A DNA stretch of 64,000 nucleotides from a virus (taxonomy: Duplodnaviria > Caudoviricetes), in the IMG/VR virus record IMGVR_UViG_3300025715_000009, positions 224,001-288,000 of that record. One strand, given 5' to 3'. Both the position numbers and the translations under genes were made by a program. This document shows, one piece after another, positions 51,526 through 63,484 of the stretch (the stretch's first letter is position 1; every line of letters starts with the position of its first letter). The notes beneath the pieces were generated by a model. The model searched no databases and was not told the origin of the DNA. It was given only the letters and a program-made list of their open reading frames with translations.

Positions 51526-53136
51526 TTATTTATGATATTCTTTAATGTCTACATAGATATTCTTACCATGAGGGACAGTGGTATTTTCTGTGGTAACACA
51601 CCAAATAGTCTTAATACCATGATTATCAAAACTATGTTCAAAATATCCATCAGTAAACATTACAATTGGGTAGGACTTTAGCTTTTCATTTAACATCCAA
51701 TCAAATGTTGCCTGAACGTCAGTGCCTCCTCTTCCCTTGATGGTAATTTTTTTGTAATCACCTCTCTTATATTCTTTCCAGACATCCTTAACTTCAGTAT
51801 CCCATTGCACAACAACAAGCTGACTTACATCTTTAACAATGTTTTCAATTTCTGAGAAAAAGACTTGAACTTCATGATCACCAATTGATCCTGAAGTATC
51901 AATTCCAACAACAATTTTGTTGCTGAATTTTTTAATTCCAGGGAGAGGAAGCCCACGGCGATTTCTCTTGCTCCAGTTATTCTCATAAATATTGCCAGGA
52001 GAGTTTACTGTTGCTGAAAGATATTTTCTTAAAAGCACCTTCCAGTTTATTTTTGCTCCTTTGCACAATTCTTCAAGTTTTTGAATTCCTGCACCAGTAG
52101 CATTTCCCCAACTACGAATCTTGGCAGTATCAATTACTTCTTTGATTGCTTGTTCAGCAAGAGCATCTGACTCTTCAAGAACAGAGTGATCATCAATTTT
52201 AGAACCATAAATAGCATCAAAAAGACCATCTCCATTTCCAGGTTGTTTGCCAGTTCCAGCACAATGTGGACATGGCTTGCCAGTTGGATTTCCTTGGTCA
52301 TCTTTTTCTTGGCCATCACCACCACAGTGTTGGCAAGATCCTGAACCACCACCTTGATTCATAAGATCTTGCATTTGATTACGATACTGCTCTCGCTTAT
52401 CAAGAAGCCAGAAGTAAAGAGCTTCAGTAATTGCCTCTCCTTTATATCCTTCAGCGGTTGCTTGATTAAGATATAGAGCACCTTCTGGAAGGACAAGCTG
52501 TCTGTTACCAATGGAGATGGTTGAAATATCTTCATTGATAAGCATATCTGCTGCAATGTTCCAGATGTAGTGATCTTCAAGAGCTCGTTCACCATGAACA
52601 CGAATCAAGTGTTCAATTTCGTGAACAAGAACACCTTCAATCTCTTGTTCTGTAAGAGGTGATGATTCATATTCTTCAATAAGTGGAGCTCCAAATGGAT
52701 CAAGTTTAATATTTCCTTGGTCATCCTTTTGGAAGATTGGAAGCTGACGAATCTTGTCTTTGTCTTGTTTAGATACTATAGGCTTCCCATTGTTATCAAC
52801 TGCAATAGGATTATTGTTTGCATCAACCCATTGCATTTTAGGACGCATTTGTCCACCACGAAGAAATTTAGGATTGAGATATAGGTTGATACGACCACCA
52901 CGAGAGTTCACTCCCATGGTAGGAATCTGTTCTGTCATATAATAATTAAAACGCAGAAGGAATTCAGAAAAGAATGGGGCGTGTTTTACCCATCGTAGAG
53001 AAATATCCTCAACTTCAGGGGGAATTCTTACCTTTTCTACCTTCATTCTTTCATTGAAAACATCTACTTGTTTGTGAAGATATTCTTTTTGCTCTTCAGT
53101 AAGTTCAACTTTATTGGTATTGATTTCGTTAGACAT
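51526..53136 (-). CDS. Metallopeptidase-like (HExxH) plus VWA-like protein (DUF2201-type) with DnaJ-like Zn finger
   Basis: IPTMGV, LVHEIEHL, WNIAADMLIN, CQHCGGDG/CPHCAGTG, DDHS, IDTSGSI, GRGGTD, FTDGY. Confidence 0.85.
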   Translation of the reverse strand: MSNEINTNKVELTEEQKEYLHKQVDVFNERMKVEKVRIPPEVEDISLRWVKHAPFFSEFLLRFNYYMTEQIPTMGVNSRGGRINLYLNPKFLRGGQMRPKMQWVDANNNPIAVDNNGKPIVSKQDKDKIRQLPIFQKDDQGNIKLDPFGAPLIEEYESSPLTEQEIEGVLVHEIEHLIRVHGERALEDHYIWNIAADMLINEDISTISIGNRQLVLPEGALYLNQATAEGYKGEAITEALYFWLLDKREQYRNQMQDLMNQGGGSGSCQHCGGDGQEKDDQGNPTGKPCPHCAGTGKQPGNGDGLFDAIYGSKIDDHSVLEESDALAEQAIKEVIDTAKIRSWGNATGAGIQKLEELCKGAKINWKVLLRKYLSATVNSPGNIYENNWSKRNRRGLPLPGIKKFSNKIVVGIDTSGSIGDHEVQVFFSEIENIVKDVSQLVVVQWDTEVKDVWKEYKRGDYKKITIKGRGGTDVQATFDWMLNEKLKSYPIVMFTDGYFEHSFDNHGIKTIWCVTTENTTVPHGKNIYVDIKEYHK

Positions 53137-53177
53137 ATAATCTCCTGCAGCTATTATATCATAATATATGCTGCTCT

Positions 53178-53207
53178 AAAAAAAGTGTGGGGGCCAAAGG
53201 CCCCCAC
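53178..53207 (-). terminator. Intrinsic terminator
   Basis: GTGGGGGCC/GGCCCCCAC stem plus T7 on minus strand. Confidence 0.8.
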
Positions 53208-53224
53208 GAATGTAGGAGGATCAC

Positions 53225-54445
53225 TTACTTTTTAGTAAGAGCTGCAACAATTTCCTTTGATTCGGCAATATACTTTTTAAGATAAGCATCAATAAAGTCA
53301 TTTCCTTCTTTGGAACACTTACGGGTGAGAGTTTGCATGAAAGCAATGTAAATGTCCTTTTCAAGGCAGTCTGCACTATAGTCATGGATGTTTGCTAACC
53401 AAGAATCAAGAAGTTTTTCAGAAGAAGCAGCTGCTTCCTTCTTGGCATCTTCTTTGTTCTTGCCGTTATTGACTGCAAGCTTGAATGCTTTCTCAAATTC
53501 TCGATCTTTTGTTACTGTCCAGTTCTTGGCAACATAGTTAGAAAGTTCTTCATTGAGACCATAAACTTGATCTCGTTGCATAGACTTGATTCTCTTCTTG
53601 ACAATCTTATACTTACTAAGAACATCGAGAGGTGTGACAATTGTCTTTTGTTCAAGCCAAGTAATGAACTGAGCAGCTGCTCCATTGATAATGGATGGGC
53701 CAATTAGTTCTGTTACGTCCTTAGTATCCATATTCTCGTTTTGTTTAAGAACATCAGAGAATTTCTTCCATGAACGAGGAGTAAGAATTACATCGTCTTT
53801 TTCATTGAGCTTTTTCTCAAGATAACCAGGTTTAGCCTGAATGAATCCAATCACATCAGGATGAACGCCAGCAGCTTCTGCCCAATCAAGCCAGCATTTG
53901 TCATTGACAGTTGTGGTAAAGTGAGCAAATCGGTTGTTAAGAGCTGAGTCCATCTCATTGACATCTGTCCCATCATCCTGTCCAAGGTTTCCTGCGGCTA
54001 CGATGAACCAGTTATCAAGGAGTTTATGAAGACCAACGGCTCGGTCAAGAACAAGCTGGAAAGCAGCTTGCTGAACATCAAATCTTGCTCGGTTGAATTC
54101 ATCAAGGAAGAGAATTCCACCATCTTTGAATTTTTTTCCTTTATTGATAGGATAGGTTTCTGGAATATTAAGATCAGCAAAAGCTCTGAAAGGAATAGTT
54201 TCTGGTGGAAGCCATCGAGATGAACCAAGAGTAAGATCTGGGGTTGGGATACCTCGAAGGTCAGCACTTTCAAGCTGAGAAAGACGAAGATCAATAAATC
54301 CAATATCCAGTTCTTCAGCAATCTGGTAGGTGGCTTCTGATTTACCAACACCAGGTGCTCCATGGATAAATGGAGTTACAGATTGAGTATATCCCTTTTT
54401 AAGAAGAAGGCGAAGTCTAATCTTTAGTTCAGCAATGTTCATCAA
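53225..54445 (-). CDS. MoxR-like AAA+ ATPase
   Basis: Walker A GAPGVGKS, DLRGIP, Walker B LFLDEFNR, AAGN, ALNNRF. Confidence 0.9.
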   Translation of the reverse strand: MMNIAELKIRLRLLLKKGYTQSVTPFIHGAPGVGKSEATYQIAEELDIGFIDLRLSQLESADLRGIPTPDLTLGSSRWLPPETIPFRAFADLNIPETYPINKGKKFKDGGILFLDEFNRARFDVQQAAFQLVLDRAVGLHKLLDNWFIVAAGNLGQDDGTDVNEMDSALNNRFAHFTTTVNDKCWLDWAEAAGVHPDVIGFIQAKPGYLEKKLNEKDDVILTPRSWKKFSDVLKQNENMDTKDVTELIGPSIINGAAAQFITWLEQKTIVTPLDVLSKYKIVKKRIKSMQRDQVYGLNEELSNYVAKNWTVTKDREFEKAFKLAVNNGKNKEDAKKEAAASSEKLLDSWLANIHDYSADCLEKDIYIAFMQTLTRKCSKEGNDFIDAYLKKYIAESKEIVAALTKK

Positions 54446-54494
54446 TTACTCCTTTAAATGTCTTTGATGTAATTATATCTTGAAAATTCTATCT

Positions 54495-54830
54495 CTAAAT
54501 AGGAATAAATCCAGAATGTGGTGTCCATTCCCAATTATGATATTCAAGTTTACTAATTGGACTTTCCCAGAAATTATCTTCTATTTTATCTGGATAAAAC
54601 ATTTTAATTGCTTTATATAAACCATTTGGCCCCTCACCACCATATCCGATAGAGAATCCAGATGCTCTATAGGCGTCATCACCATCAAACACGAAATATG
54701 TTTTACAATTGACAGCATTTTCTGCTTCAATAATAACTTTTACAAGTTTTCTTTTATTGTAAAATTCAAGAGTTTGTAGGCTTTTTTGAGTGACTCCATC
54801 ATTGTCATAACCAATAATATTCATATTCAC
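54495..54830 (-). CDS. Hypothetical protein
   Basis: GFSIGYGGEGPNGL Gly-rich motif. Confidence 0.65.
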   Translation of the reverse strand: MNMNIIGYDNDGVTQKSLQTLEFYNKRKLVKVIIEAENAVNCKTYFVFDGDDAYRASGFSIGYGGEGPNGLYKAIKMFYPDKIEDNFWESPISKLEYHNWEWTPHSGFIPI

Positions 54831-54847
54831 CTCTCAAGAATATATGC

Positions 54848-55555
54848 CTATTTTTCTAACAAAAATCTTGCTTTCATATTTATTGAGCAATTATTTCTTG
54901 ATATGATGTGTTCCATTAAGGAATAAAAAAAAACATCATCTAAATGTGTTCTCATATAAGAAATTATTTCATCAGAAAAGTATACTATATTTGAAAAAAC
55001 TGATAAAAATTCAAATGATACCGCAGATGGCATTGAACAAATAAATTTTACTGCAGGTTCAAATTTAGAATTGTCAGCACGAATAATAGAGATCAAAGCT
55101 CCTTTTCTCTCATTTAAAAAAGTATAAAAATCATTATTCATGCCACAAACAGATTGAAGAAAAAAATCAAAATCAATATATTTAGACATAGTTTTAGGAA
55201 TTATTTCCCATGCTAAAAATACAAGACCAAGATCTAATTTCATGATATATTGTTCTATTAAGTCTTGAGTTATTTCTTGTTTAATAAGAGTTTCAGTATA
55301 TATTGCTTTTGTTATATCTCTTGATTTAAGACCAACTTTTGAAATAACATCTATAATTATAGATTCTGGTAATTTTTGAAGACTGACAAGATCATATCTT
55401 ATCTCTCTTATTTTCCATAATTCTAATAATAAATCATCTGACAGTTGATTTGTTTTAAAAAATCTTTTTAATCGAGATCTATTTCCACCACTACTAAACC
55501 ATTTATAGTCTTTATTAAGTATTTTTTCTTTTATTAAGGCTTCATCTATAAGCAT
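54848..55555 (-). CDS. Hypothetical helical protein
   Basis: 235-aa ORF. Confidence 0.6.
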   Translation of the reverse strand: MLIDEALIKEKILNKDYKWFSSGGNRSRLKRFFKTNQLSDDLLLELWKIREIRYDLVSLQKLPESIIIDVISKVGLKSRDITKAIYTETLIKQEITQDLIEQYIMKLDLGLVFLAWEIIPKTMSKYIDFDFFLQSVCGMNNDFYTFLNERKGALISIIRADNSKFEPAVKFICSMPSAVSFEFLSVFSNIVYFSDEIISYMRTHLDDVFFYSLMEHIISRNNCSINMKARFLLEK

Positions 55556-55971
55556 GATTCAATATATTTTTGAACATCATTTAACATATCTTTATCATTA
55601 TTAAAAAATTTTTCAACAAATTCTTCTGCCATTTCTAAAACAGTATCGATTACAAGATCATTCTCTAATTCTTCATAATCATCATAATCAATATCATTTC
55701 TTGAATATCCATCAGCTAAAAATTCATGGGCCATTTCACTCCAATTAGAGCGAATGGCCCACTTGTCATAATCCTCTTTAGCCTCTTCTACCTTATCATA
55801 TAAGATATTTGCTAATTCTTCAGGAATAATATCATTTTCCTCAAAAACTCTTTGCACATGTGATGAAAAAGAACCAGACGATAAAAGAATTTTAGCCTTC
55901 TCGTTATCTTCCATTCTATCTGCCTGAAAATAAATTGATAAAAGGGATGATTTTTGCCTCAGGAAGAACAT
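55546..55971 (-). CDS. Acidic hypothetical protein
   Basis: Likely true start at MEDNEK (55914). Confidence 0.55.
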   Translation of the reverse strand: MFFLRQKSSLLSIYFQADRMEDNEKAKILLSSGSFSSHVQRVFEENDIIPEELANILYDKVEEAKEDYDKWAIRSNWSEMAHEFLADGYSRNDIDYDDYEELENDLVIDTVLEMAEEFVEKFFNNDKDMLNDVQKYIESCL

Positions 55972-56266
55972 CTTTCATGTTTTTAGCACCAGCTGGATTT
56001 AGAGTATGAAGAATAATTTCATCAAATTTTAGATCTTGAGAGGCAACCCATTTAGCAAATTGATAGCCTGTATTAGGTTCATTTGAGTCAACATAAACAC
56101 GATCATCAAGATCATGATCAAGAAAAAGGACATCAAAAGGACCAAGCAGTTGAACTGCCTCTATGGCATCTTTAACATTATCAAAAAAATAAAGATCATG
56201 CTTAAAAAGATGCTTTTTGAAAAGCTTAATCCTCTCAGGAGAATCTTCAAGTATGAGAGCTTTCAT
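55916..56266 (-). CDS. Cyclic-phosphate-processing receiver-domain protein
   Basis: ILED..R, LFLDHDL, TGYQFAKW, ILHTLNPAG..NM. Confidence 0.8.
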   Translation of the reverse strand: MKALILEDSPERIKLFKKHLFKHDLYFFDNVKDAIEAVQLLGPFDVLFLDHDLDDRVYVDSNEPNTGYQFAKWVASQDLKFDEIILHTLNPAGAKNMKDVLPEAKIIPFINLFSGR

Positions 56267-56624
56267 ACATCCCTCTCTTTACAGCCTTAAAGATATACCC
56301 TGCATCACTTAATACAAGGGTTTTGATAACAAGACTCTTTTTCCATGTTTCATCAACTTGTCTAAATCGTCTATTATATTGTACTGTAAATTGGTATCCA
56401 CCTAAAGCCTTTAATTGCTTTACAGTGTAATGTTTTAAAAGATTACGATAAATCTTTAAGGCACGTGAAAATATAACCTTTATGTTATGATAACCTGGAT
56501 TTGGATTATTTTTAAGAGTTGAAATGGCTTCTTCTACAGCCATCTGTGAAAGTGTTCTTGAATTTAAACGTTTACCTTGGAGAGCAGCTTTAGCCAAAAG
56601 AGCGTTTCTTAAACCAATATCCAC
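56247..56624 (-). CDS. Basic hypothetical protein
   Basis: GTG start after AGGAG. Confidence 0.6.
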   Translation of the reverse strand: MDIGLRNALLAKAALQGKRLNSRTLSQMAVEEAISTLKNNPNPGYHNIKVIFSRALKIYRNLLKHYTVKQLKALGGYQFTVQYNRRFRQVDETWKKSLVIKTLVLSDAGYIFKAVKRGMYESSHT

Positions 56625-56664
56625 GTTTTACTCCTTGAGGATTAGTTGGTATTAAATATGCTTA

Positions 56665-58164
56665 TTATCCGCGTCCTTGTCCAGAATCTACAATATTTCC
56701 ATCTGTATCAAAAGCATCAGCAAATGATTCTACATGGACATCACAATATATAAAGTTTCTTGGACGCATATTTCCGAGCCATGCTTTGCTGGTTATAATA
56801 TATAAAATATTGCCCAAATTATTTCTATATAATGGTCCAAAAGCATTTGGCACCTCATCATAACCATCAGTAAAGAATAACAAGAATGGAACATTGGCAT
56901 AATCAAAAGATTCTTTTAACATGTCTCCATATTTGAATTGTTTTGTCTTTAATTTTTTAATTTGTTCTTGGCGATCATTATCTTTTACATAAGTTGTTTC
57001 TATTTCATGTTCAATTTTATATAAATCTTTTTTCTTGTCAATTTCAAATAGTCCAGGTTTTGCTTCATCAAACACAAATTTATTAGATACCAAATTACCG
57101 CGTTTTTCTTCTTTCAAGAAGTGTTGATTTAAGAATTTATATACACAATTTACAGCATTACCGCCACCACCTCTAGGAGCTTTTGGTTTTTTATCGTTTT
57201 TCCATTCACGAATTGGAGTATAAACTCGTGTATCATATTCCAAAAGGAAAACTCTTCCTGGGATACCACCAGATCCTGCTGAATCTGATTTAAAGAAATC
57301 AGCTATTTCTTTAGCCCACCCATATACTAATTCAAATTCTTCATCACCCATTGATCCAGATGTATCTACACATAAAAATAAAATTGCAGATTGTTTATTT
57401 CTATCATCATCTTTTACTTCAACAGGTCTATTGATATCTGATTTACCGCCTTGTGATGCACCAGATAAAATAGAAAGTTGATATGTTTCATCATCCATCA
57501 TTTTTTTAGAAATTTCTTCTTTAAAGGCAGCAAGCTCATGTTTAATTTTATCCATTGGAAGACGTCTTCTTACAATTTTCTTTACATCATCTCTAAACAT
57601 ATTACCTGCAGCACCTTGCCAATTATCTGGATTCTTTTTACCAGATCTTCTTACCATTTTATCATATATTTCACTTAATGCATCATCTAATTTTGAATTA
57701 TCAGATTTATTAGCCATTATTGAGTGATCATCTATTGAATTGATATCGTCTTTTAATCTTTCACCAGTTCCTTTACCCCACTCACCTTTTTTATTTTTAT
57801 CTTCACCTTCTTTACCACCACTTTCTTCACCAGTTTGATCTTCTTCTTTTGGATTACTTGCCTGTTGATCTTGTGATTTTTGGCCTTTTTTATTTTTATT
57901 AGATTGTTTGTCTTGGCTTTGTTGTCCCTGTTGACCTTGCTGACCTTCTTGTCCTTCTTGACCTTCTTGATCTTCTTGACCTTCTTGTCCAACAACTTCA
58001 ATATTTGATGATCCACCTTCACCATCGCCTTGTTGTACATCTTTAGGGCTTTTCAATATAGTTATTTGTTCTGGTTTCCAATGAACATTTAAAAGACCAG
58101 CTTCATTGAGATTGATATATTCTACATTATCTAATTCTTCGGCTAATTTTTTCCAAATACTCAT
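56665..58164 (-). CDS. VWA-like domain protein (C-terminal half of a split DUF2201-type system)
   Basis: DDHS, VDTSGSM, RGGGGN, FFTDGY; Q/E/G-rich linker. Confidence 0.8.
   Translation of the reverse strand: MSIWKKLAEELDNVEYINLNEAGLLNVHWKPEQITILKSPKDVQQGDGEGGSSNIEVVGQEGQEDQEGQEGQEGQQGQQGQQSQDKQSNKNKKGQKSQDQQASNPKEEDQTGEESGGKEGEDKNKKGEWGKGTGERLKDDINSIDDHSIMANKSDNSKLDDALSEIYDKMVRRSGKKNPDNWQGAAGNMFRDDVKKIVRRRLPMDKIKHELAAFKEEISKKMMDDETYQLSILSGASQGGKSDINRPVEVKDDDRNKQSAILFLCVDTSGSMGDEEFELVYGWAKEIADFFKSDSAGSGGIPGRVFLLEYDTRVYTPIREWKNDKKPKAPRGGGGNAVNCVYKFLNQHFLKEEKRGNLVSNKFVFDEAKPGLFEIDKKKDLYKIEHEIETTYVKDNDRQEQIKKLKTKQFKYGDMLKESFDYANVPFLLFFTDGYDEVPNAFGPLYRNNLGNILYIITSKAWLGNMRPRNFIYCDVHVESFADAFDTDGNIVDSGQGRG
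57921..57990 (-). repeat. 9-nt-period coding repeat (GQEGQQGQ)
   Basis: tgaccttct/tgtccttct units; similar tract at 58402-58460. Confidence 0.7.
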
Positions 58165-58173
58165 ATTTCCACC

Positions 58174-59085
58174 TTATGCTATATCTATTGTGTTTTTAAT
58201 AGTAAAATCATTTATTTCTGCTTTTTTGGCTAAAAATGATTTTTTACCTAAAACAATATCTTCTGCTTCTTGTTTTGTTAATGGCTCAATTTGTTTAACA
58301 TTACCACCAACTGTTTTTACAACCCTTCCATATTGTCCATCTGGTCCACGAATAATATCACCTTTTTTAGGTTTTATAATTTCTGATTGTTGATTTCCAC
58401 TCTGACCTTCTTGTCCTTGTTGACCTTCTTGACCTTCTTGTCCTTGTTGACCTTCTTGATCTTGATTTGGATCTCCATCTTGTTTAGCCTTATTTATAAG
58501 ATATTTATAAAGATCAGCAGAATTACCAATTGGAAGATATTCTTTGGGATTAATTTTATCTCTTGGAATGCTCAATGTTTTTTCCATAACTTTGTCTATG
58601 CCATTCATCTGAGCACCTCTATACTCTTTACTCTCCTTCATTAATCCACCATCAACAAATTTTATAGGGATGCCTGCAAATTCACCATCACGATTAGCAT
58701 CTTCATTAATATAAATATCTTCTACTATGTTATTTAAATTATGGTTAGATTTACCAAGATTAAAATTTCTATTACAATGTCCTCTTTTATAATGAGCAAG
58801 TTCATGATATAAAAGGAAAGCAAGTTGAGATATAGTTAGTTGACTATAAAAACCTTTACCAATATAAAATTGTAATCTTCCCTGATACATAGCAACGCCC
58901 ATAGTTGGTTCAGGATGATCTTGGGTTGGTTCCATCCAATAATAATCAGTATAATTTTTTAATAATTCATATGTAACAGGTTCTGAAGCTCTTATATAAA
59001 GAAGAAAATTTGAAAACTTTTCAGGAAGTTGACTTATTCTTTGATCTTCATTTAAGAGCTCTCTTTTTAACTTATCTAAAAACAC
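58174..59085 (-). CDS. Metallopeptidase-like HExxH protein (N-terminal half of split DUF2201-type system)
   Basis: PTMGV, LYHELAH, NIVEDIYIN; QEGQQGQ tract. Confidence 0.8.
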   Translation of the reverse strand: MFLDKLKRELLNEDQRISQLPEKFSNFLLYIRASEPVTYELLKNYTDYYWMEPTQDHPEPTMGVAMYQGRLQFYIGKGFYSQLTISQLAFLLYHELAHYKRGHCNRNFNLGKSNHNLNNIVEDIYINEDANRDGEFAGIPIKFVDGGLMKESKEYRGAQMNGIDKVMEKTLSIPRDKINPKEYLPIGNSADLYKYLINKAKQDGDPNQDQEGQQGQEGQEGQQGQEGQSGNQQSEIIKPKKGDIIRGPDGQYGRVVKTVGGNVKQIEPLTKQEAEDIVLGKKSFLAKKAEINDFTIKNTIDIA

Positions 59086-59086
59086 A

Positions 59087-61894
59087 TTAACCTCTCATGT
59101 TTTCAAACAATGATTTTAATCCCTTTTCAAGAACTATGCTTTCTTTTTGCATATCATTCTCTCTTGGTTGTTCAATTTCCACTGGGACAAACCAATCTTG
59201 TTGAACAGCATGCCATATGCCTTTGAGATAATTTTCTATTTTATTTCCCTTTAAACCAGAAATAAATTCATTGAATTCATCAAGGAATCCAAGCTTCTTA
59301 ATTTTTGATAATTGAACATTAACAAATTTCTTAATACCGTCTTTAAAGTTTTGAGTAAAATTACTTGATCCTCTTTCTTCTTGTAATGATTCACCAAATA
59401 AATCATCTACATCATCTTTACTACCAGCATCATCAAAATTAAAATCCTTAAGATCAATATCATCAAGCTTACTAAGAGCAGCTTTATATTGATCATCATC
59501 TGCAAGAACAGAAGCAAGTGTTCCCAAAAACTCCATTGTTTTTTCATCTTTTGTATCAGCAAGAGCTTGACCAATAGAAATTGCTAATCCAGCAATCTCA
59601 TCACCAGAACACATAGCATCATCAGTGAATCTCCATATATTAGTTGCAAGATACCAATATTCATTTTTGAATCCTAATTTTTTAATATCTATTCCAGTAA
59701 TTTTCTTTTTATAATTCTCAATTGAACCAATTTGAACTAATTTTCTTGGAATTTCATCAAGAATAATATCTTTGGCTGATCTTGCTACTTGTTCTAATTC
59801 TGCTAATTTATCTTCATCTTTATTATATTTTAAGGCAGTTTCAACATGTTTTAAGAGAACTTGTTCTGTGTCTCCTAAAACCATTTCTTTTTGTGTTTTA
59901 CCATGAGCTGCTTCAATATCTGCAAGTATATTCTTGCCACCTTTCATTAATGATGCTTCAATGATCTTTAAATATCTTTGATGACCTTGATTCATCATTA
60001 AATAATATGCTTGTGGAGATGGAAGAGGTCTCTTTGTCCATTTTTTCTCTTCTGCATTATATATTGGAACTTCTTCTTTTTTATAATTTTTTTCATACCA
60101 TTCTTTTGGTAGTGTTTTGGATGTTCCAACAGGAGTTACGAGATTATCATTTTCCCAGTCCTGAAGAGCAGCCATAGATACGTTTTTAGAAATACGATCA
60201 ATAAGACGTGGGTTAATTTTAACAGGAGTTCCAGTTTGATATGATTCAAGAGAAGTTCTTTGATATTGACCTTCTTCCATACCATTACGAATAACATAGT
60301 TAAGCCATAATGCAGGTGGAATCATTTGCTTCCACTTCTTGGCCAACTCTGGAGTTAATTCAAAATTCTTATGTTTTACTTCCCATTCAGTTGAATCAGA
60401 TGGATTGAAATCTGGTTCTTCTCCTTCTGAAGGAAGAGATGTCATACTACCCATAATGTGAGAAACAGAATCATTAATCTTGCCTTGAACTTTTACAATA
60501 AAACTGAAACGAGTAAGAATAGCACCAGTAATTTTGGATACTTCTTCACCATCTGAATCATCTGAACCACCTTTGCCACCAAGGTTTGATGTAGCTGAAA
60601 CAATTGTTTTTAATGGAAGGAAGTAAATTGTTCCAATTGCTCCAGTTAGTAATAAGTTCATAACTGCAGACATTTTTTTATCTGTTCTTGAGAATTCATC
60701 TAATGCTAATAGCCATGGGTCTTTATTTCCTGGATCAGGTAATACACCCTTTACAGGAACAAGTTCGACAATTGTTTTTTCTGTACGAGATACTTTTTCT
60801 CCATCTGCTTCAACAATTATTTCTTTTTCTTGAACACCATTATACTCTTCATTCTTTGATCCTTCAAATCTATATCCCATAGATTGAAGTTTTTGTTTTA
60901 CTGGAGAATATGATTTATCCCATACTCCAGTTAAAGATCTTTTAAGATATATTGCTTGTAATGTTGTAAGCGCTGCTTGCTCTGGTGAATCTTCAATTTC
61001 ATCAGCTACACTTGCATCGCCTGTAAGTATTTTTTGAACATAATTATATTTTTTGTTGGCTTTTTCAAGATCTTCTTCTTTACCCTCGAATAGCATGTTT
61101 CCAATTTGTACAACTTTAGAATCATTGACAGATTTACCTCTTCCTGTTTCAGTATTATATACTGTTTGAGAAACAGGCATACCACCAAAGATTTCTGTAT
61201 AAATAGAAGCTACTTCAATTGCTTTATATCTTGCGCCAATCATTTTTGCTACTTGAGTTCCGATTGCTGTTTTTGCTTCACCAGGAGAACCGAATACGAG
61301 AATTGAAGGGATGAATTGGGTTTGACGAGTTCTAAATTTTACTTGGAAAGCAAGGCGTCCAAACAATTGCTTCATTTGTTCGACTGTAATTGTGCCTTCT
61401 GGTTTGCCTTCATATGATTGCTTGTATTTTTTATCAATTTTTGTATCTTTTAATTGACCACCAAGACCAAACATATGTTTCATAGCACCAGATTTATCTG
61501 CTTTTACTTCTTCTTCTTCACCAGTATCAAAAGCATCTGGATTTATACCATCATCTGCTTCTGTTAATTTGGTTTTTAATTCATCAAATATAGATTCATT
61601 AGCAACACCTAATTTTGTTCCATTAGTAAAACCAAATCCATAAAATCTAAGCCCACCACTATTTTGTTCAGTAATGTGAAATCTTTCAACACCAGCAGAG
61701 TCAGTAATACCCATCTCACTATCACTTTTTTTGAATATACCAAATACTTTATTTCCAAGTTTTACAATTGATGTTTTAACTGCACCATAAACAGATTTAA
61801 TTTTTTGGATAAGACCACCAGCTATCTCTTTTAACCCTTCATCGAGATTCTGCTGATCTTCCAAGTTTTCATTTAAAAACTTTCCAAGATCCAT
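59087..61894 (-). CDS. Large MoxR-like AAA+ ATPase (935 aa) with insertions
   Basis: Walker A GSPGEAKT, GGMP, Walker B LALDEFSR, ATSNLG, AILTRF. Confidence 0.8.
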   Translation of the reverse strand: MDLGKFLNENLEDQQNLDEGLKEIAGGLIQKIKSVYGAVKTSIVKLGNKVFGIFKKSDSEMGITDSAGVERFHITEQNSGGLRFYGFGFTNGTKLGVANESIFDELKTKLTEADDGINPDAFDTGEEEEVKADKSGAMKHMFGLGGQLKDTKIDKKYKQSYEGKPEGTITVEQMKQLFGRLAFQVKFRTRQTQFIPSILVFGSPGEAKTAIGTQVAKMIGARYKAIEVASIYTEIFGGMPVSQTVYNTETGRGKSVNDSKVVQIGNMLFEGKEEDLEKANKKYNYVQKILTGDASVADEIEDSPEQAALTTLQAIYLKRSLTGVWDKSYSPVKQKLQSMGYRFEGSKNEEYNGVQEKEIIVEADGEKVSRTEKTIVELVPVKGVLPDPGNKDPWLLALDEFSRTDKKMSAVMNLLLTGAIGTIYFLPLKTIVSATSNLGGKGGSDDSDGEEVSKITGAILTRFSFIVKVQGKINDSVSHIMGSMTSLPSEGEEPDFNPSDSTEWEVKHKNFELTPELAKKWKQMIPPALWLNYVIRNGMEEGQYQRTSLESYQTGTPVKINPRLIDRISKNVSMAALQDWENDNLVTPVGTSKTLPKEWYEKNYKKEEVPIYNAEEKKWTKRPLPSPQAYYLMMNQGHQRYLKIIEASLMKGGKNILADIEAAHGKTQKEMVLGDTEQVLLKHVETALKYNKDEDKLAELEQVARSAKDIILDEIPRKLVQIGSIENYKKKITGIDIKKLGFKNEYWYLATNIWRFTDDAMCSGDEIAGLAISIGQALADTKDEKTMEFLGTLASVLADDDQYKAALSKLDDIDLKDFNFDDAGSKDDVDDLFGESLQEERGSSNFTQNFKDGIKKFVNVQLSKIKKLGFLDEFNEFISGLKGNKIENYLKGIWHAVQQDWFVPVEIEQPRENDMQKESIVLEKGLKSLFENMRG

Positions 61895-61956: not shown

Positions 61957-62538
61957 TTATTTAAGGAAGGAAGCTGCTCCACCTTCTGCTTTTGGTGCAA
62001 CAACTGCTACGCACTTTTCTAATAGATCGGCAAATTTAAGACCAGTAAGTTTTTTGCTAACTTTCCAGTTTGCGTCTTTGAGTAATTCAGTCCAACCTTC
62101 TACATTGCCTAATGCTTCTTCTTCAAGAACCTTACCACTAAGAATTTCTTCTGCAAGATTCATATATTTTTCAATTTCTCTTGCTTCACTTGTTTGTGCT
62201 TTTGGTTCTTCTTTTCCTGCTCTCTTTCTAAGAGCAGCAGCAGCTGCCTTATCTTCTGCTGAACCAAGTGATTGACCCTTTCCAAACTTCATGACATAGA
62301 TGTCCCAAGAATCTGGGTTATTTTCTCTAATAACAAGAAGTGAGTTCTTGGCACTACCAAAACCACCCGCACCACTCTTTACATCAGCAGCACTTGAACC
62401 TTTTGGTTGTGGGATATATGCCCATTTTGCACCTTGTACGGCTTGAGCAAATGTTTCTCCACCACTTGAACCAGCATCTTCTGCTTCGTTGATAATCATA
62501 TCAGCGTTCTCTTCAAGACCTTCTAAGAAATCTCTCAT
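61957..62538 (-). CDS. Hypothetical protein, possible abundant internal head protein
   Basis: MRDFLEGLEENADMIINEA N-terminus; SD AGGAGGT; CAAGATAA motif upstream. Confidence 0.7.
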   Translation of the reverse strand: MRDFLEGLEENADMIINEAEDAGSSGGETFAQAVQGAKWAYIPQPKGSSAADVKSGAGGFGSAKNSLLVIRENNPDSWDIYVMKFGKGQSLGSAEDKAAAAALRKRAGKEEPKAQTSEAREIEKYMNLAEEILSGKVLEEEALGNVEGWTELLKDANWKVSKKLTGLKFADLLEKCVAVVAPKAEGGAASFLK

Positions 62539-62814: not shown

Positions 62815-62842
62815 AAAAAAAGACGCTATTTAATAGCGTCTT
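62815..62842 (-). terminator. Intrinsic terminator of tmRNA
   Basis: AAGACGCTAT/ATAGCGTCTT stem plus T-run directly after the tmRNA 3' end. Confidence 0.8.
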
Positions 62843-62843
62843 A

Positions 62844-63114
62844 TGGAGCTGCAGGCAATGACGCCTGGTCCAGAATATAAACACATAATATGCAAATAGT
62901 TTTTACAAGAACTTATTAATCTTGTGCAATTTATTGTTTTTCATGACAAATCAGCTAAAAGTCATTATCTATTTATTAAAGCTGCATTCAGGAAAATAGA
63001 AAACCTATAAATGCAGGTAAAGCAGCAATTAAGCTGCGAGTGCAAAATTGTCGTTTATTTAAACAAAACTTTTATTATGTGTTTTATCTACTCTGTCGAA
63101 ATCTTTTCAGCCCC
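62844..63114 (-). ncRNA. ssrA: tmRNA (SsrA), compact; tag (A)DNFALAA
   Basis: 5' GGGGCTGAAAAGATTTCGAC; 3' GGAC-CAGGC..GCCTG-CAGCTCCA; 7-bp acceptor stem with G3:U; long helix 2; TAAAC-GAC AAT TTT GCA CTC GCA GCT TAA tag frame. Confidence 0.92.
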
Positions 63115-63229
63115 CTGTAATAATTTTTTTGCTTGATAATATAAAATAAAATCTTCTTTTTTCATTTTATACAACTTTACTAAATCAGTTAAATGTGATT
63201 TTTGTTTTATTTTATTTTTATTTTTCCAT

Positions 63230-63484
63230 TTATTCATAACTTTCCCACTCAGAACAAAAATACTCAGAACATATAATTGGTCTATATTTATAAATAGTGC
63301 ATCTAAATGTTTTTGGGTCAGTAAATATACAAAATCTTACTGGTCCAATCGTTTGAGTTCGCTGTGGATATTTTTCAGTCAACTCTTTTGAACTGATGTT
63401 CATATTGTTTGCTATTTCTATCCAATCATTATCATCTAATATATAAATAGCACAACATTTAGCAGCACATGTTGAACATTTCAT
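63230..63484 (-). CDS. YkgJ-like CxxCxxCC metal-binding protein
   Basis: CSTCAAKCC...CIF....RCTIYKYRPIICSEYFC. Confidence 0.8.
   Translation of the reverse strand: MKCSTCAAKCCAIYILDDNDWIEIANNMNISSKELTEKYPQRTQTIGPVRFCIFTDPKTFRCTIYKYRPIICSEYFCSEWESYE

Follow-up and report, generated by a model that had tools for sequence, protein, structure and literature searches.

Can a tmRNA tag the chains of stalled ribosomes once pseudoknot 1 (PK1) is gone, and why would a phage maintain such an RNA with an altered T-loop as well? Reviews reportedly hold PK1 to be the only pseudoknot required for tagging, or else ask for some stable structure in its stead, and recent modelling is said to make it the anchor for loading the tag frame. 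The question is raised by a tmRNA gene on the minus strand at positions 62844-63114 of the window, by which we mean the whole stretch of 64,000 nucleotides that was analysed. The source record (388,268 bp, 98% complete according to CheckV, 29.7% GC) has a Gp23-type capsid gene and is a T4-like jumbo phage; runs from digester, activated-sludge and sediment samples contain its DNA. A preliminary description of the locus had reported a tmRNA of 271 nt with an alanine acceptor stem (G3:U, discriminator A, no encoded CCA), the tag (A)DNFALAA and a T-arm CAGGC-GTCATT-GCCTG whose 6-nt loop departs from TTCRA, all of which we could confirm.

The scans with ARAGORN and Rfam that this description had proposed as a check recovered the tmRNA, each with a reservation. 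ARAGORN missed the gene at default settings and with -ps85 called it at genome c[286844,287114], which is window 62844-63114, and placed the tag DNFALAA* at nt 63-86. RF00023 gave an end-to-end match of 41.7 bits (E 6.7e-14), under its gathering score of 47 bits, a criterion that is operational and not biological. The predicted fold is more stable than that of shuffled sequences (z = -4.1), and the gene order is standard and not that of a permuted two-piece gene, as no 3′ acceptor piece lies ahead of the 5′ end. The resume codon is at nt 63, compared with a median of 94 in a sample of 117 bacterial tmRNAs whose median length is 365 nt. The features are listed below in the 5′ to 3′ order of the RNA, with the evidence in brackets; L numbers are related loci.

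62844-63114, minus strand: one-piece tmRNA gene, 271 nt up to the discriminator, CCA not encoded (RF00023 match; ARAGORN -ps85; RNA contig over 62844-63101)
63108-63114, minus strand: 5′ strand of the acceptor stem, nt 1-7, with G3 (all 7 pairs intact in every relative; G3:U never varies)
63096-63107, minus strand: stemless D-loop equivalent ending in UUCGA, predicted SmpB site (binding suggested by known tmRNA structure)
63067-63095, minus strand: 5′ strand of helices 2a-2d, nt 20-48 (in helix 2 as a whole, both partners change in 12 pairs)
63053-63066, minus strand: unstructured 14-nt linker at the PK1 position (gap of about 23 columns against L053 and L074; linker folds at 0.0 kcal/mol)
63029-63052, minus strand: tag frame DNFALAA-stop, nt 63-86 (ARAGORN; same tag in L046, L047 and L076)
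63022-63037, minus strand: helix 5, with the stop codon within its loop (fold prediction and relatives)
62968-63016, minus strand: pseudoknot 2, helices 6 and 7 (8/10 pairs of helix 6 change on both sides; helix 7 is 83% paired)
62928-62965, minus strand: pseudoknot 3, helices 8 and 9 (both-side changes in 4/5 pairs of helix 8 and 1 pair of helix 9)
62905-62925, minus strand: hairpin at the pseudoknot 4 position (64% paired; second stem unsupported)
62871-62901, minus strand: 3′ strand of helix 2, nt 214-244 (structure model and relatives)
62852-62867, minus strand: T-arm with the 5-bp stem CAGGC/GCCTG and the 6-nt loop GTCATT at 62857-62862 (sequence and structure model)
62844-62851, minus strand: 3′ strand of the acceptor stem and discriminator A (read from the sequence; structure model)
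62820-62842, minus strand: intrinsic terminator, hairpin then T run (1 found, 0.1 expected; begins 2 nt past the discriminator)

Most of these elements are those of the standard one-piece SsrA described by RF00023: an acceptor stem formed by nt 1-7/264-270 with the pair G3:U268 and discriminator A271, a stemless D-loop in which UUCGAC has GGAC opposite it, no anticodon arm, a long helix 2, a resume signal at the 3′ end of the linker with U at -5 and A at -4 (ATAAAC precedes GAC), an internal tag frame that lacks a start codon and has a hydrophobic LAA end, a stop codon in helix 5, PK2 and PK3. Judged by these defining sequence features the window RNA belongs to the one-piece tmRNA family, in a form other than the canonical one with four pseudoknots. 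The one-piece SsrA of E. coli is 363 nt long; relative to it, the window RNA is about 90 nt shorter, has PK1 deleted without replacement and shows a hairpin in place of PK4. It further differs from standard SsrA by its 7-codon tag beginning with Asp, by a D-loop in which a single G (nt 12) takes the place of the usual GG, and by the 6-nt T-loop, which is closed by C-G where the canonical pair is G-C and which stands where the 7-nt TTCRANY would be expected. Some details of the preliminary description needed correction. Three T's and not four follow GTG in the 3′ strand of helix 2. Not all downstream pseudoknots have been lost: PK2 and PK3 are kept and PK4 is reduced to a hairpin (in L050 a second PK4 stem is possible by eye; the window RNA has the hairpin only). 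The distance of about 20 nt given between helix 2 and the resume codon is right as a length, but it includes the probable helix 2d, the weakest part of helix 2, which leaves a free linker of 14 nt.

How PK1 was lost can be seen in relatives at the same locus. They were reached through homologues of two nearby genes, a 193-aa neighbour and a VWA gene upstream, and share a conserved gene order. PK1 is missing from L046, L047 and L076 (partial), all three with the tag DNFALAA; L046 and L047 have another T-stem (TCGGT/ACCGA) and an 8-nt loop. L050 lacks PK1, has a canonical T-loop and encodes DNYALAA. PK1 is present in L053, with a canonical T-loop, and in L074, with the T-stem of the window RNA and the 6-nt loop TGCAAT. 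L047 and L050 score 58.3 and 82.3 bits with RF00023, both above the gathering score. In the alignment PK1 is a clean block of about 23 columns, present in L053 and L074 and missing in the short forms, and the linkers left behind do not fold (0.0 kcal/mol). PK1 was therefore deleted outright and not replaced, in agreement with the preliminary description, which had named a PK1 equivalent appearing on folding as the finding that would overturn it; a hairpin standing in for PK1 was sought and rejected on the folding energies of the linkers.

Natural or artificial departures from the four-pseudoknot form are not new, and engineered E. coli tmRNAs with PK1 replaced were reportedly made by Tanner in 2006 and Wower in 2009. 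In E. coli, tagging reportedly survives when a hairpin or single-stranded RNA takes the place of PK1 (PMC3968760, PMC4236655), which like the window RNA points to tagging without the PK1 fold; those are laboratory substitutions, whereas the present case is a natural net deletion kept across lineages. Activity of the window RNA is plausible because E. coli tolerates such replacement. The frame in E. coli is set mainly by A86, the A at -4 (PMC2481249). On the other hand, a 2026 preprint maintains that a stable structure is required at the PK1 position (PMC13692277), and the window RNA has none there. Pseudoknots have been lost naturally in plastid tmRNAs, which have fewer or none (PMC3985003) and lose mainly PK3/PK4 (PMC1168896, table 1), and in Oenococcus oeni, whose tmRNA lacks helix 4 of PK1 (PMC1168896); O. 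oeni keeps helix 3, while in the window RNA the whole of PK1 is gone and PK2 and PK3 stay. Among phages, for which 79 tmRNA sequences are on record (PMC11915505), Bacillus phage G and mycobacteriophages Bxz1 and Wildcat likewise encode full-length one-piece tmRNAs (PMC4131195). The phage G gene is also short (309 nt), but all three resume at nt 86-96, show PK1-type pairing by eye and have canonical T-loops. Phage tmRNAs, pseudoknot-poor plastid tmRNAs and engineered PK1 replacements were thus already known; a natural PK1-deleted phage form seems undescribed in the papers searched, which come from a limited set of journals.

An RNA that scores below the Rfam gathering threshold, that ARAGORN misses by default and whose gene is absent at the same site in L048 could be a decaying pseudogene or an assembly artefact. 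We analyzed covariation in six related PK1-less sequences using a 75-pair model drawn from the window sequence. The model is 84.7% paired, a percentage biased by its derivation from that sequence, and changes on both sides of a pair are stronger evidence than percent paired. Such changes occur in 30 pairs, where shuffles gave 15.7 ± 2.7 (0/500) and slid controls 6-10, and they fall in helix 2, PK2, PK3 and the T-stem, where 3/5 pairs are affected. All 8 aligned PK1-less sequences retain A(-4), G3:U, UUCGAC and the AA-stop end unchanged, and the structure is kept in phages with 64-72% identity in the neighbouring protein. A pseudogene is rejected because of this covariation and the invariant A(-4), G3:U and AA-stop end. 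The tmRNA sequence is also identical in six other assemblies (L040-L045), and a sediment DNA contig covers the T-arm unchanged, with three differences elsewhere. Given that these assemblies, the sediment contig and an RNA contig all agree on the T-arm, its unusual loop is not an assembly error, and decay or artefact as an explanation of the locus is scarcely credible.

The RNA contig comes from metatranscriptome run X9 (sludge). It is a single 260-nt contig at depth 18 that spans 62844-63101 without differences (258/271 nt), and the upstream flank is at depth 2-3. Its match to the genome ends at the discriminator, and two more letters that do not match the genome follow; these are suggestive, being what an added CC would give, although contigs cannot prove ends. 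One low-depth variant disrupts a helix-5 pair. Runs X16 and X18 contained no contig of the window tmRNA, just 33-36-nt matches from tag regions of other organisms, which were left out of the evidence. Expression of the tmRNA is thus probable, on the strength of one run of contigs that may include DNA. Promoter matches did not exceed chance, and the terminator is at the same site in all relatives, even in L048 where the tmRNA is gone. In L046, L047, L053 and L076 the stop codon of the upstream gene abuts tmRNA nt 1, so the 5′ end must arise by cleavage, presumably by host RNase P. A called ORF of 49 aa (window 63088-63237, minus strand) overlaps the tmRNA by 27 nt.

In its proposed role as a streamlined ribosome-rescue RNA, which the presence of all known functional signals, the covarying helices of the relatives and the matching RNA contig favour, the molecule is likely a working tmRNA that would use host AlaRS, EF-Tu, SmpB and RNase P, acquire CCA post-transcriptionally and tag stalled chains with ADNFALAA. 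We infer every biochemical step, among them charging, SmpB binding and tagging, for an RNA whose structure and conservation are shown and whose expression is probable. Transcription would proceed together with the upstream genes and end at the adjacent terminator, host RNase P would cut the 5′ end, and CCA would be added, probably by the CCA-type nucleotidyltransferase that the phage encodes along with two ClpP-like genes. By analogy with known tmRNAs, host AlaRS would charge the RNA through G3:U and the A discriminator, and host SmpB and EF-Tu would bind it; SmpB would have to come from the host since a search for a phage smpB, suggested in the preliminary description, found none. An RF-1-family gene, an RNase P RNA and a second tmRNA were likewise not found in the phage genome. 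On a stalled ribosome translation would resume at GAC, set by U(-5)A(-4), and the added ADNFALAA may act as a degron of the ClpXP/ClpAP type. PK1 would be dispensable if the frame is set by this local signal and not by the knot, with PK2, PK3 and helix 5 keeping the ring folded. The RNA may serve to prevent ribosomes from staying blocked while the phage infects, as one element of a large phage translation kit. To our knowledge a role in infection has yet to be proven for any phage tmRNA.

The same lack of a phage SmpB would suit a decoy, an RNA that binds SmpB, EF-Tu or AlaRS, rescues poorly and so damps host trans-translation. TLD-only RNA like that of mycobacteriophage DS6A is reported to be inhibitory (PMC4131195, PMC11915505), and the window RNA resembles it in being a shrunken phage derivative that relies on host SmpB; moreover, the lowest-energy fold hides the resume codon in a hairpin competing with helix 2d. 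This hairpin is not common to the relatives. DS6A-type RNAs have no tag frame, while that of the window RNA is conserved together with the resume signal, helix 5, PK2 and PK3, with compensatory changes in elements that a decoy does not need, and a normal LAA degron closes the tag. We therefore regard a decoy as very unlikely.

The main doubt concerning a working tmRNA lies in its altered D- and T-loops because contacts between the two are reportedly required (cited in PMC3968760). The elbow is probably rebuilt and not lost. In L074 and the L059 group, D-loop AG accompanies T-loop TGC in what looks like a compensated elbow; D-loop AG with GTCATT in the window RNA could, speculatively, be another, in which G12 and the T-loop C might still pair.

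The preliminary description had also raised a possible resistance of the RNA to host RNases or toxins. In the relatives the two changes do not form one joint design: the one locus presents all four combinations of PK1 (present or absent) and T-loop (canonical or altered), and L050 and L074 each show one change alone, so PK1 loss and T-loop change are two separate events. In a tree of the VWA gene, PK1-less L050 is sister to PK1-bearing L074 (support 100/98), which points to allele exchange at the tmRNA site. These observations are compatible with relaxed constraint, whereby a second copy beside the host tmRNA tolerates changes that are not adaptive while phages swap whole alleles or T-arms at the locus, and so are the loss of the L048 gene with its terminator kept and the loss of pseudoknots in plastids as well (PMC3985003). 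Relaxed constraint accounts less well for the recurrence of the same PK1 loss, with resume positions at nt 61-65, in unrelated phages, or for the odd T-stems remaining fully paired. Drift is also not general in this genome, in which about 54 of 59 tRNAs keep TTCRA loops according to ARAGORN, a program that favours canonical loops; with the same reservation, the odd T-loop is special to the tmRNA. We give relaxed constraint with allele exchange somewhat less than an even chance.

Escape would explain the pattern differently: with its altered elbow and without PK1, the phage RNA would withstand host nucleases or toxins capable of destroying the host's own tmRNA and tRNA, or the altered T-arm DNA would evade introns, integrases and homing nucleases. 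The T-arm is indeed the most variable element, with three different loops among close relatives, in a gut phage-like contig (L378) the loss of PK1 goes together with a loop of 8 nt, the T-loop is where every known group I intron of tmRNA is located (PMC11915505), and tmRNA is a predicted target of CoCoNuT systems (PMC11090510). However, no nuclease has been identified that recognises PK1 or the T-loop of tmRNA, PK1 loss and T-loop change are uncoupled, and the search for a host led no further than a phage CCA enzyme 41% like Patescibacteria proteins. Escape thus appears somewhat unlikely, and relaxed constraint with allele exchange fits the pattern at least as well. Whichever applies, this one locus offers natural alleles that have or lack PK1 and whose T-loops are canonical or altered, in every combination, as a ready test set for claims about PK1 and D/T-loop contacts.

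To determine how widespread such RNAs are, we scanned for a tmRNA 5′ end with an LAA-stop close behind. The pattern requires a GGGGNTG start and an xAA-ending tag, a scope that omits reduced symbionts and other tags. In IMG/VR it returned 18 viral stretches. Among them are genes of other phages, 230-250 nt long, one-piece and without PK1 (L055, L059, L063, L064 and L070), that resume at nt 64-65, and two-piece genes whose 5′ domain is just as short; as read from these sequences, one-piece PK1-less tmRNAs occur in at least three other phage groups. Two versions of the scan over 185,579 prokaryote genomes gave 11 and 85 stretches, nearly all due to chance, and by this pattern no clearly chromosomal PK1-less one-piece tmRNA was found there, nor any exact-pattern match to a 7-codon tag starting with Asp. 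A control pattern with normal spacing gave matches in both collections, with counts that are lower bounds. Several bacterial candidates were set aside: L095 is an N-gap artefact, and in L351 and L382 the gene is of a two-piece, cyanobacterial type and sits on a short contig among mobile-element-like genes. The 237-nt one-piece tmRNA at L378:3120-3359 (minus strand; bin G009, contig C1), which lacks PK1, has the 8-nt T-loop and encodes CCA, lies on a phage-like 117-kb contig in a rabbit-gut Bacilli bin whose normal tmRNA is elsewhere; RtcB-, TROVE- and gyrase-like ORFs are visible by eye near it. Exact patterns of the ends, linker and tag of the window RNA had no match in IMG/VR, where near-identical records are perhaps outside the set. 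All 22 matches of a metagenome pattern scan were due to chance, blastn against cultured phages revealed no relative, and capsid relatives in IMG/VR are fragments without a tmRNA, which as fragments are uninformative on absence. Default tools undercount phage tmRNAs. It would go further to see in the PK1-less tmRNA with a rebuilt elbow a recurring phage-specific design, selected to rescue ribosomes while escaping defences that destroy host tmRNA and forming a sizeable class invisible to default annotation; we consider this unlikely.

The same searches uncovered other phage tmRNA genes. Five in IMG/VR (L054, L057, L060, L061 and L065) are two-piece, with the resume codon about 59 nt past the 5′ end, and also seem to lack PK1. 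L066:6061-6250 is a 5′ tmRNA half that encodes the tag ANDNFAPSGFALAA and has a terminal hairpin; no acceptor piece lies within 200 nt on either side, and the gene may be split or headless. In the viral one-piece tmRNA at L290:4168-4410 (243 nt) the 5′ spacing is normal, with the resume codon at nt 86, and the shortening lies downstream. ARAGORN finds permuted tmRNA genes, unannotated in GenBank, in Caulobacter phage CcrColossus (L083) and Synechococcus phage S-SSM7 (L084), the latter with a hypothetical CDS annotated across it.

The surroundings of the window gene offer further observations. The 59 tRNA genes called by ARAGORN start about 6 kb beyond the tmRNA, and their cluster includes an amber-reading tRNA with a CUA anticodon (G000:C1:293264-293335, minus strand). 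The relative without a tmRNA at the site has a GOLLD RNA (176 bits) and two tRNAs at L048:1696-2129. The 233-aa VWA gene found upstream of the tmRNA in relatives is absent at the window locus. Positions 51526-61894 (minus strand) hold two tandem modules of AAA ATPase, DUF2201 metallopeptidase and VWA-like genes that are kept in relatives. The 193-aa protein encoded at 61957-62538 (minus strand) has no Pfam or PHROG match and was found in 10 clusters only, and its gene is covered by RNA contigs from three metatranscriptomes.
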